Virus record (IMG/VR): IMGVR_UViG_2684622669_000017
Reading direction: 5' to 3' (one strand)
Length of the DNA stretch: 5,954 bases
Source of the DNA: a virus
Taxonomy: Duplodnaviria; Heunggongvirae; Uroviricota; Caudoviricetes
Within the stretch, counting starts at the first letter, position 1. Each line of letters begins with the position of its first letter. Made by a program: the position numbers and the translations under genes. The notes beneath the pieces were generated by a model that was not told where the DNA came from, searched no databases, and was given only the letters and a program-made list of their open reading frames with translations. Positions 3,210-5,954 of this stretch are shown in pieces.

Positions 3210-3230
3210 TGCATTTATGCGCCTTGATAA

Positions 3231-3271
3231 TTTTAAGGTGTGGCCCACTATATGTTTTAGGTGTGGTCCAC
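3231..3271. promoter_or_regulatory. Tandem operator-like repeats TTTTA(A)GGTGTGG(C/T)CCAC, each containing a GTGG-N-CCAC palindrome
   Basis: Repeat 1 at 3231-3248 (palindrome GTGGCCCAC 3240-3248), repeat 2 at 3255-3271 (GTGGTCCAC 3263-3271), period about 24 bp. They overlap the -10 and spacer of the predicted leftward promoter and lie upstream of the RHH gene. Confidence 0.55.
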
Positions 3272-3276
3272 GTCAA
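3247..3276 (-). promoter_or_regulatory. Predicted sigma70 promoter for the leftward Icd-like/helicase operon (TTGACG-N18-TATAGT)
   Basis: Minus-strand -35 TTGACG (3276..3271) and -10 TATAGT (3252..3247) with an 18-nt spacer; predicted TSS near 3240; both operator repeats overlap it. Confidence 0.5.
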
Positions 3277-4006: not shown

Positions 4007-4213
4007 TTACGCAGCCGTTCCGCGCGCTTCTTCCTCGCGCTCTTTCAGCCAGGCCAGCACTTCATCTTCATACCAGCCAACACGACGCAGACCGATTTTG
4101 AATCCTTTCGGGAATTTTCCGGCGTTGATCATGTCCTGTAGCGAACTGTCTGCCTTGATGCGCAGAATATTTTTTACTTCCTGACGGGTAAGTATTTTTC
4201 TGATTGTTTCCAC
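4007..4213 (-). CDS. alpA: AlpA-family phage regulatory protein (transcriptional activator / excisionase-like, winged HTH)
   Basis: 68-aa ORF starting at GTG 4213..4211 with GAGGT 8 nt upstream. Translation ...ILTRQEVKNILRIKADSSLQDMINAGKFPKGFKIGLRRVGWYEDEVLAWLKER aligns with E. coli AlpA motifs (FPK, VGW, E-x-E-[IV]-x-x-W-L). Confidence 0.8.
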   Translation of the reverse strand: METIRKILTRQEVKNILRIKADSSLQDMINAGKFPKGFKIGLRRVGWYEDEVLAWLKEREEEARGTAA

Positions 4214-4280
4214 TATGTTTTACCTCGTTAATCCGGCGTATTCCGGTGATAAATACGGTAAAACAGGGCAGGGCGGGAAA

Positions 4281-4318
4281 AACAGTACCCACCGTTTTAA
4301 AACGGTACCCACTGTTTT
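4281..4318. promoter_or_regulatory. Composite repeat upstream of alpA: two direct GTACCCAC copies 20 bp apart around a perfect palindrome CCGTTTTAAAACGG, with inverted outer flanks AAAAACAG / CTGTTTTT
   Basis: GTACCCAC at 4285-4292 and 4305-4312; palindrome at 4292-4305; lies between the int-operon terminator and the alpA RBS. Confidence 0.4.
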
Positions 4319-4348
4319 TTATCTCATTGATTACGCTTTTCTTTCTGC

Positions 4349-4377
4349 AAAAAAATAGCGACCGCAAAGGGCCGCTA
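4349..4377 (-). terminator. Intrinsic terminator downstream of the int / 76-aa ORF transcription unit
   Basis: Minus-strand hairpin TAGCGGCC-ctttgc-GGTCGCTA (one mismatch) followed by TTTTTTT (plus-strand A7 at 4349-4355), 7 nt after the ORF stop. Confidence 0.55.
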
Positions 4378-4383
4378 TTGTGA

Positions 4384-4614
4384 TTACCGTTTCCACTTCT
4401 TAGGTCGCCCACCGCATTTAAGGCTGGTGGGCCTCAGCACCTTGTCGATGCTTTCAGCCAGATTTTTCGATGCACCACGCGAGCGCAAAAAACTGACTAC
4501 CTCGTGTTTTGTGGGGGCTGTTGATTTGTCTTCCGGATCGTATGTTGACCAGAATTCACGATTTGCCATTAACGCCAGTTGCAGCCCTTCGCCGTAGGCG
4601 GTGGTATTTTGCAT
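4384..4614 (-). CDS. Hypothetical small protein (76 aa; 61 aa if translation starts at the internal ATG 4569), basic C-terminus, function unknown
   Basis: ORF track; ATG at 4614..4612 lacks an SD. An out-of-frame 19-codon upstream ORF (ATG 4628..4626, GGAG 3 nt upstream) ends in TAATG, overlapping the internal ATG at 4569. Protein-like composition; followed by an intrinsic terminator. Confidence 0.5.
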   Translation of the reverse strand: MQNTTAYGEGLQLALMANREFWSTYDPEDKSTAPTKHEVVSFLRSRGASKNLAESIDKVLRPTSLKCGGRPKKWKR

Positions 4615-4712: not shown

Positions 4713-5954
4713 TTACACGGCACGGATACCCCTTTTACCACTGGCTATGGTCACTCCGGTAGCTGCGGCCTCTACAAATTCCCCCCACCAGCGCATAAGC
4801 ACCACGCGCTTTTCCAGGTAGTTACTTCGGTTATATGCTCGCCTTACCTCGTTCGTGTCCACGTGTGCGAGTGCGGCCTCGATTACGTCCGGCTCGAATC
4901 CTTCCTCGTTCGCTGCTGTACTGAATATGGCGCGTAATCCGTGAGACACCAGCACACCAGCGTAACCCATCCGGCGTAATGCAGCGTTAGCGGTCTGGCT
5001 GCTCATTGGTAGCATTGGATTTTTAAGGCTGGGAAAAACATGTTCCCTGTGTGCGCTGATTGGCTTCATGGTTTCCAGTACAGCCATAGCCTGACCGCAA
5101 AGGGGGATCACATGGTCACGGCGCATCTTCATGCGTCCGGCTGGAATCGTCCAGGTTTCGGCATCGAGATCTATTTCTTCCCAGCGTGCGGCGGCTGCTT
5201 CGGCTGGGCGTGCTACGGTCAACAGTTGCCACTCGATCAGCAATCTGGTTTGCCGTTCTATGCTGGCGACCGATAAATCGTGCATTAGCTGCGGTAGCTG
5301 TTCCGGTCGGATGGTTGGCATGTGCTTTTTGGTGGGTGAGGGAAATGCCTTGCGGACGTTAGCAGCGGTGTTGATGTCAATCAGCCCACTGTTGGCGGCA
5401 AAATCCATCACTTCATTGATGCGCTGCAAAACGCGTTTCAGAGTTTCCAGGTTGCCGCGTGCTTTAATGGGTGTGAGTATCTCAACAAAGCGGCGAGCGG
5501 TGAGGGTATCTATTGGCGTTTTTCCGATGTACGGGAATACGTATTTTTCCATGGATCGCCAGATATCCTTAATCGTGTTGTAAGCGAGATTCTGGCCTTT
5601 TTTCATCTCGTACCAGTCAGAGGCAACTTTTTCGAACGTGTTGCCCTTTTTCCGACTCTCTGCTTCACGTTTCCGGCGTTCGTGGTCCTGTGGGTCAACT
5701 CCCTTCGCTATGAGTGACCTGTATTCATTCCGTCGTTCTCTGGCATCGGACAGGGAAACATCATTCAGCGATCCGAGGCTGATGATAGTCCGTTTTTTAT
5801 CTGCCGGGCGGTAGTACGTAAAACGCCAGATTTTTGATCCGGAGGGTTTCACCAGAAGAAATAATCCTCCGCCATCCTGCAGGGTGTATTCCTTTTCCCC
5901 TGGTCGTGCGTTTTTGATCTCCGTAATAGTTAGTGGGGTGGTTTTTCGTGCCAT
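4713..5954 (-). CDS. int: Site-specific tyrosine recombinase/integrase, P4 family (N-terminal arm-binding DUF4102-type domain plus catalytic domain)
   Basis: 413-aa ORF; ATG is the last three nucleotides of the window (5954..5952); TAA at 4715..4713. N-terminus MARKTTPLTITEIKNARPGEKEYTLQDGGGLFLLVKPSGSKIWRFTYY is typical of P4-type integrases (compare E. coli IntA). Catalytic motifs are present: R in TVARPAE, HGLRAIF (H-x-x-R), and tyrosine in RRAYNRSNY. Confidence 0.92.
   Translation of the reverse strand: MARKTTPLTITEIKNARPGEKEYTLQDGGGLFLLVKPSGSKIWRFTYYRPADKKRTIISLGSLNDVSLSDARERRNEYRSLIAKGVDPQDHERRKREAESRKKGNTFEKVASDWYEMKKGQNLAYNTIKDIWRSMEKYVFPYIGKTPIDTLTARRFVEILTPIKARGNLETLKRVLQRINEVMDFAANSGLIDINTAANVRKAFPSPTKKHMPTIRPEQLPQLMHDLSVASIERQTRLLIEWQLLTVARPAEAAAARWEEIDLDAETWTIPAGRMKMRRDHVIPLCGQAMAVLETMKPISAHREHVFPSLKNPMLPMSSQTANAALRRMGYAGVLVSHGLRAIFSTAANEEGFEPDVIEAALAHVDTNEVRRAYNRSNYLEKRVVLMRWWGEFVEAAATGVTIASGKRGIRAV

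Follow-up and report, generated by a model that had tools for sequence, protein, structure and literature searches.

A conserved double dyad upstream of alpA as a candidate tandem operator in a family of Escherichia coli phage-inducible chromosomal islands

We analysed a stretch of viral DNA of 5,954 nucleotides (IMG/VR record IMGVR_UViG_2684622669_000017; hereafter the window), which is a phage-inducible chromosomal island (PICI) of E. coli at tRNA-Pro/yejM. The − strand carries, in this order, int, orf76, a terminator, the site that is the subject of this study and alpA, followed by a gene for an Icd-like protein, a DUF4222 gene and a gene for an AAA_25 RepA-type helicase; the + strand carries a YlcI/YnfO-like gene and one small open reading frame. 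Related islands are 9–13 kb long and adjoin tRNA-Pro between yejM and yejO; they have genes for capsid, head decoration and small terminase but none for tail or lysis. We call the window a Gram-negative PICI because its gene organisation (int, alpA, a replication module, capsid/terS, no tail/lysis genes and a dedicated att site) fits the definition of that class (PMC6092414, PMC10111431). The features of the int-orf76-alpA region are listed below in the direction of alpA transcription.

4713..5954, − strand: P4-type tyrosine integrase gene (Pfam Phage_integrase, Phage_int_M, Arm-DNA-bind_3), in the same module as the site
4384..4614, − strand: orf76, encoding a small protein (76 aa) with three helices and a basic GGRPKKWKR tail; candidate ligand
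4354..4379, − strand: intrinsic terminator of the int-orf76 unit, a 10-bp stem then a T7 run, directly upstream of the site
4321..4350, − strand: weak candidate promoter from a PWM scan, TTGCAG (4350–4345)-18-TGAGAT (4326–4321), conserved in position
4299..4318, − strand: unit 1 of the candidate operator, alpA-distal, AAAACAGT-GGGT-ACCGTTTT
4279..4298, − strand: unit 2 of the candidate operator, alpA-proximal, AAAACGGT-GGGT-ACTGTTTT
4263..4278, − strand: 16-bp spacer from the site to the leader, with 11/16 columns variable and constant length among two-unit haplotypes
4216..4265, − strand: conserved alpA leader, 50 near-invariant nt, with a Shine-Dalgarno (SD)-occluding helix and an inner CCGG hairpin (RNAalifold)
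4007..4213, − strand: alpA, 68 aa, GTG start (Phage_AlpA/HTH_17; Pfam PF05930, E=4.5e-8; PHROG 'excisionase and transcriptional regulator')

Several other elements of the island were apparent. A consensus-like sigma70 promoter on the − strand, TTGACG (3276–3271)-18-TATAGT (3252–3247), with a score of 10/12, reads into the operon of the Icd-like and replication genes and is divergent to the YlcI-like gene. It is overlapped by two 22-nt direct repeats at 3227–3276, ATAATTTTAAGGTGTGGCCCAC and ATATGTTTTAGGTGTGGTCCAC, each with a GTGGNCCAC dyad; this region is probably the early promoter of the island together with its operators, and its repeats are unrelated in sequence to the site upstream of alpA. 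Directly 3' of the AAA_25 RepA-type helicase gene, CCTCACTTTT iterons cluster at positions 345–560 in both direct and inverted orientation, with a 46-bp near-palindrome at 460–505 among them, and this cluster is probably the replication origin. Finally, a 90-aa database protein labelled 'AlpA family [Cooperia oncophora]' (P0014) is a chimera in which a deletion has joined orf76 and alpA of this island in frame, evidently derived from E. coli contamination in a nematode assembly.

The site is 40 bp long and occupies 4318–4279 on the − strand, which is the sense strand of alpA; the + strand from 4278 to 4319 reads AAAAACAGTACCCACCGTTTTAAAACGGTACCCACTGTTTTT. It consists of two head-to-tail 20-bp units, each of which is a dyad in its own right, AAAACNGT-N4-ACNGTTTT, whose 8-bp arms flank a 4-bp centre. 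A dyad-symmetric transcription-factor operator has inverted half-sites at a fixed spacing, the arrangement seen here. A repeat search returned 4279–4298 and 4299–4318 as a tandem 20-nt direct repeat with 18/20 (90%) identity, and the same 40 bp as a palindrome with 22-nt arms (82%). Unit 1 is a perfect 18-bp palindrome in another copy of the site (L038). The repeat and palindrome that had been flagged in this DNA are non-random: across 300 first-order Markov simulations of the window, the tandem identity reached at most 15, as against the 18/20 observed (0/300), and tandem repeat combined with palindrome at a single centre reached at most 13, as against 16/20 (0/300).

The original prediction had described this locus as two direct copies of GTACCCAC lying 20 bp apart, combined with a perfect 14-bp palindrome, about 70 bp upstream of the alpA start and between the int terminator and alpA. 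The two copies are there, at 4285–4292 and 4305–4312 on the + strand, and the alpA-proximal edge of the site is 66 bp from the GTG of alpA (4213). The palindrome CCGTTTTAAAACGG is likewise present at 4292–4305, although the perfect stretch is really 16 bp long (4291–4306); while real in the window, it is merely the junction of the two units and is imperfect in the commoner of the two clades described below (CCGTTTAAAAACGG). A terminator does lie upstream, but it follows orf76 and not int directly.

We found alpA together with its upstream block, through the distal edge of the site, in 373/5426 complete E. coli genomes at 75–100% identity; alignments to the more distant E. coli copies end at about 4319–4331, just past the site. 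Conservation in related elements, the check proposed with the original prediction, is borne out across E. coli genomes, IMG/VR islands and metagenome contigs: about 7% of complete E. coli genomes have the site family, O157:H7, O111 and Nissle 1917 among them, the two-unit pattern has 47 matches in IMG/VR, all of them islands of this family, and the same element occurs in about 30 metagenome contigs. The copies fall into two clades: W, which includes the window, and O, which includes O157, O111 and Nissle and is the commoner. Between W and O, dS is about 1.0 for alpA and 1.8–4.3 for orf76, with dN/dS of 0.05–0.20, and synonymous sites between the clades are saturated.

Against this divergence, we scored the variability of each column over 17 two-unit haplotypes. 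Only 3/32 arm columns were variable, as compared with 7/8 columns of the centres and 5/6 columns of the 5' flank. In unit 1 the arms varied at 2/8 and 1/8 columns and the centre at 4/4; in unit 2 the arms varied at 0/8 and 0/8 columns and the centre at 3/4. The centres found were GGGT, GAGT, GGAT, GTAT, TATA, TCTA, TGGT and GGGA. The arms are under sequence-level purifying selection, and half-sites conserved above the neutral level around a free centre are what an operator would display. As the recognition element, the direct GTACCCAC repeats fare poorly: no part of the site is more variable than their ACCC/GGGT core, which, because the centre columns vary most, is the unconstrained part.

One-unit variants occur on two backgrounds (L006 and L195), and unit 2 is the one that is kept; a further variant has a 12-bp deletion (L003). 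The two-unit site is single-copy, with no second copy within 2 mismatches in the 47 islands, in L007 or in the window. It is absent from islands with other alpA control regions, namely EcCICFT073, EcCIMP1 and the L040 type, which carry unrelated repeats, and when genome contigs of other species were scanned for AlpA relatives, the only matches were distant, unrelated HTH genes. The site is real, selected, family-specific and linked to the int-orf76-alpA module. One island of E. coli RM13745 (L239; NZ_CP044312.1), identified as H38, had seemed a recombinant that might part orf76 and the site from alpA; it proved uninformative junk sequence. At L239 2230–3000, some 750 bp of low-complexity, G/A/T-rich sequence with long homopolymers stand in place of the 3' part of alpA and the sequence downstream, which looks like an assembly artefact.

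A consensus scan detected no sigma70 promoter between the terminator and alpA, and a PWM scan gave weak candidates only. At the alignment position of the candidate at 4321–4350, the PWM scan of relatives gave TTGCAA-17-TGAGAT and TTTATA-17-CAATAT. This candidate, itself a weak one, would put the site at about +1 to +40. Downstream of the site, the leader helix pairs 4265–4257 with 4224–4216 and thereby occludes the SD sequence; it contains 1 compensatory pair between the W and O clades. The same leader architecture with other base pairs is also found in P4 vis (L245 9030–9090) and in a distant low-GC relative (L241 3044–3079): the helix pairs are UUUACC/GGUAAA and GAUUUACC/GGUAAAUC, with GUUACC/GGUAAC in the distant low-GC relative and GCUACC/GGUAGC in P4 vis. 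This suggests conserved translational control of AlpA/Vis genes through the leader helix. The conservation of the helix also argues that transcription starts upstream of 4265, and three geometries remain for the site: an upstream activator site, a promoter-overlapping site, or an operator or hairpin downstream of the start.

The invariant leader contains a 10-bp direct repeat, CACCGGAATA/CGCCGGATTA, at 4248–4229, of which L005, L039 and L125 have a third copy by exact 10-bp duplication. This repeat could be an AlpA site in its own right, because helically phased direct repeats are the usual Xis-like site. Also in the leader, TATCACCGG (4245–4253, − strand, W type) agrees at 8/9 positions with the consensus for a lambda operator half-site. 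A partner half-site is lacking and the O clade does not keep the first base, and the resemblance is probably due to chance.

As RNA, the site can fold into one long hairpin (−16.6 kcal/mol for the − strand and −16.4 kcal/mol for the + strand) with U5/U6 runs. The main rival to an operator builds on this fold: transcription would start just upstream of or in unit 1, and the two units would form a single leader hairpin followed by UUUUU, an attenuator or weak terminator, possibly bidirectional, that would limit alpA expression until overcome. We consider this unlikely, while it remains the first of the alternatives. The best position-conserved promoter candidate does lie directly upstream of the site, the inner hairpin is terminator-like, and the SD-occluding helix shared with P4 vis and L241 implies that the region from 4265 downstream is transcribed. 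However, the hairpin has modest z-scores, namely −1.7 and −2.2 for the window and −2.8 to −4.0 for relatives; neither strand is favoured, the stem is A/U-rich with five A-U pairs that use up the U-run, and only the inner 7-bp hairpin passes a terminator scan. A one-unit variant folds at only −6.4 kcal/mol, a strong terminator already stands 35 nt upstream, and the Rfam 15 covariance models gave only sub-threshold eukaryotic chance matches.

The pattern of substitution weighs more heavily against a leader hairpin. In a 12-sequence alignment, 13/16 putative stem pairs are invariant and one changes on one side only; the sole two-sided change sits in the variable centre, with 2 unpaired cells. The same alignment contains no compensatory changes between arm positions, although such changes would be expected of a terminator or attenuator. 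By contrast, the adjacent int-orf76 terminator has a wholly different sequence in the O clade and has kept its stem and T-run. It serves as the contrast case, because this structure-only element drifted in sequence and the arms of the site did not. A constraint on pairing alone is disfavoured, since divergence at saturation should have brought compensated drift, and a DNA operator is favoured, since invariant arms around a free centre are the signature of base-specific recognition by a dimeric protein.

We next consider which protein might bind the site. A ligand encoded in the module is favoured because only int-orf76-alpA co-segregates with the site in mosaic islands; the alternative would be a host or helper factor that is universal. 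Winged-helix proteins of the AlpA/Xis type usually act as monomers on phased direct repeats and not on dyads. Nonetheless, AlpA, acting by positive autoregulation, is our tentative first choice. AlpA has been shown experimentally to activate its own promoter region in EcCICFT073 and EcCIMP1 (PMC6092414, PMC11773190), although the AlpA proteins of those islands are only about 31–37% identical to that of the window and the upstream regions are unrelated. The AlpA of L040–L043 is 71–73% identical, yet these islands have an unrelated control region and no site, which counts against AlpA as the ligand. Because L040–L043 pair a similar AlpA with another upstream region, the alpA control region appears to be an exchangeable module. 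These islands, at the same att site, are also without orf76, and upstream of their alpA they have a consensus-like sigma70 promoter (TTGACT-N17/18-TATTCT), AATTGGTTCCTAATTGG-type palindromes and TGTCTCATTAC direct repeats.

ORF76 is a second choice that we regard as doubtful. The orf76 gene accompanies the site in every island examined and, with dN/dS of 0.05–0.15, is a real gene under strong purifying selection. Homologues of the protein occur almost only in E. coli among 5.8 billion proteins, and share the invariant motif EFWSTYDPED(K/R)(S/T)TAP. An AF2 model (pLDDT 79.5) is a three-helix bundle, for which there was no Foldseek match at E<=0.001 and no recognisable DNA-binding fold; sequence comparison with the PDB gave no meaningful match, and the family has no match in Pfam, PHROG or NCBIfam. 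Distant relatives of ORF76 are always found beside P4-type integrases, in one case without alpA (L244) and in another with alpA and no comparable dyad (L241), which suggests a role alongside the integrase. In PICMI satellites, an int-adjacent gene is needed for excision (PMC10803314), and by analogy ORF76 may be comparable. A helper-phage or host factor, which comes next in rank, seems equally doubtful.

Other candidates did not stand. The YlcI-like ribbon-helix-helix (RHH) protein is shared at 98% identity with EcCICFT073, an island without the site, whereas islands that have the site encode versions only 58–66% identical, so the RHH protein named as a binder in the original prediction is disfavoured. 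The integrase, named there as well, fares no better: sites for an integrase arm or a recombination directionality factor (RDF) would be expected as clusters of copies no more than about 200 bp from the att core at the ends of the island, whereas neither the 47 islands nor L007 contain a second copy, and half-sites are unclustered at the ends. LexA sites, NarL/P heptamers, GntR/HutC-type sites and lambda operators were compared by eye with the site, and the resembling bases fall in its variable positions. What stands of the predicted protein-binding site controlling alpA is a selected, alpA-linked cis element with a pattern of arms and centre that fits protein recognition; of the proposed binders, the integrase is unsupported, the RHH protein is disfavoured and AlpA is a candidate with evidence against it.

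Two further explanations keep a DNA-binding protein and give the site a different part. In the first, alpA would have a weak constitutive promoter and the site, at about +1 to +40, would be the operator of a repressor encoded in the module; the candidate would be ORF76, co-transcribed with int, and a helper phage would relieve the repression, by analogy with Stl-type control in Gram-positive islands. ORF76 and the site co-occur in all islands examined and are both missing from the control regions of the L040 type, EcCICFT073 and EcCIMP1; the selected orf76 product combines a helical core with a basic tail, and the site lies directly downstream of orf76, where the candidate promoter would set it over the transcription start. 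However, co-occurrence may be plain linkage of adjacent elements, ORF76 is without a detected DNA-binding fold, the promoter call is weak, and the distant relatives of ORF76 do without alpA or without a similar dyad. We judge this explanation less probable than the leader hairpin. Less probable again is a sensor site, at which a transcription factor of the helper phage or host, coming from outside the island, would bind the dyads and switch alpA on. Helper phages induce alpA in other PICIs through an undefined factor (PMC6092414, PMC11773190, PMC10803314). Dyads also suit a dimeric regulator better than an Xis-like monomer, and the pairing of similar AlpA proteins with other control regions suggests a separate, exchangeable sensing module. 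On the other hand, no phage contig contains the double site, the IMG/VR matches being islands in 47/47 cases, and a BLAST search of 50,697 phage records with the region gave no relevant match. Searches with single units were no more productive: the perfect-unit pattern gave 23 unrelated matches in IMG/VR, mostly low-GC and at about the chance rate, and the degenerate-unit pattern in viral contigs gave non-island matches that, among those listed, were coding sequence or unrelated, at roughly chance level. Because no phage carries the double site and the single-unit matches listed look like chance, a phage activator with targets of its own is unsupported. Nor do the dyads fit the consensus for TGT-N12-ACA (Ogr/Delta), LexA, NarL/P or GntR-type sites in a comparison by eye. 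Finally, the site might be without function, a small palindrome duplicated in tandem as a 20-bp unit, and exact 20-bp deletions are what slippage between direct repeats would give. We think this very improbable, since the arms are invariant at dS of 1 or more beside a free centre and spacer, and a single unit is itself conserved.

From the pattern of constraint, we favour with moderate confidence a tandem operator at which a DNA-binding protein would act as a dimer to control alpA. A sequence-specific protein dimer would sit on each unit and read the two 8-bp arms, not the central 4 bp. The two dimers would lie side by side, 20 bp (about two helical turns) apart and on the same face of the DNA, so that cooperative occupancy would be possible. 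Occupancy of the site would set alpA transcription on or off; AlpA is the master activator and excisionase, and its expression starts the cycle of the island. The ligand would most likely be encoded in the int-orf76-alpA module. We also count for an operator the constant 16-bp spacing from the site to the invariant leader in two-unit haplotypes, and the modular copy number seen in the one-unit variants and in the 12-bp deletion. Protein binding, the geometry of the dimer pair, the identity of the ligand and the sign of regulation are what we infer from these sequence comparisons.

Expression of alpA is the committed induction step in Gram-negative phage-inducible islands, and how a helper phage turns alpA on is stated to be unknown (PMC6092414, PMC11773190, PMC10803314). 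The present analysis provides a sharply defined 40-bp cis element and a mutational prediction, namely that the arms matter and the centre does not; together with the natural one-unit variants and a short list of candidate ligands, it makes the helper-to-alpA question testable for this family. The double dyad might even be the helper-sensing point itself, either as the operator of ORF76, an unrecognised master repressor of Gram-negative PICIs, or as the docking site of a helper inducer; we hold this to be unlikely, and if it were true, occupancy of the dyads would decide whether AlpA is made. Should the site serve only for autoregulation by AlpA, or only as a leader hairpin, it would amount to routine regulatory detail.

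Among the papers in the literature library searched, none describes this site or any defined cis element of a PICI alpA promoter. Its nearest analogue is the late-left region of P4 (P_LL upstream of vis), where, as here, a control region lies directly 5' of the AlpA/Vis gene, the first of the leftward operon. The P4 vis and alpA leaders have in common a ATTAACGAGGTA ribosome-binding region, the SD-occluding helix and the inner CCGG hairpin. In P4, too, there is a dyad upstream of the leader, although it is a single TGT-N12-ACA in place of the two tandem AAAACNGT-N4-ACNGTTTT dyads found here, and it lies about 55 bp upstream of the anti-SD segment as compared with 29–49 bp for the dyads here. 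The TGT-N12-ACA dyad, centred near −55, is the site of the helper and satellite zinc-finger activators Ogr and Delta. Both strands of the element give only ACA-N28-TGT, which does not fit an Ogr/Delta site; the TGT-N12-ACA motif is visible in P4 itself.

The alpA promoter regions of EcCICFT073 and EcCIMP1 occupy the equivalent position, and both AlpA autoactivation and helper induction have been described there, with no cis site defined for either region (PMC6092414, PMC11773190). The window and EcCICFT073 have the Icd-like, DUF4222 and YlcI-like (98% identical) modules in common; upstream of alpA in EcCICFT073 are 10-bp-phased ACAAC repeats, and neither that island nor EcCIMP1 contains a copy of the site. 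The EcCIMP1 reporter data are not directly applicable here, as they concern a different alpA allele and a different upstream region. The AlpA element of Pseudomonas aeruginosa, with its antitermination, is also set aside. That AlpA is larger, with a 21Q-like fold of 8 helices and DNA contacts R128–H142, and recognises GGGACG between −35 and −10 (PMC9371919), whereas the AlpA of the window is a 68-aa Phage_AlpA winged-helix protein; the two proteins are unrelated, and the site contains no GGGACG.

RDF sites of the Xis, Cox, Apl and TorI type offer another parallel, in that AlpA belongs to the same excisionase-like winged-helix family and the units here are also direct repeats in helical phase. 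RDF sites, however, are short direct repeats within att arms, whereas the present site is dyadic and lies 1.65 kb from the int-proximal end of the island. In architecture only, the site resembles lambda OR1–OR2, where adjacent dyads of about 17–20 bp with conserved arms and a freer centre are bound by cooperative dimers. Unlike OR1–OR2, its units abut without a spacer, and there is no sequence similarity between the two. Seen beside these systems, the double dyad adds a new example to a familiar kind of element and does not define a new one.
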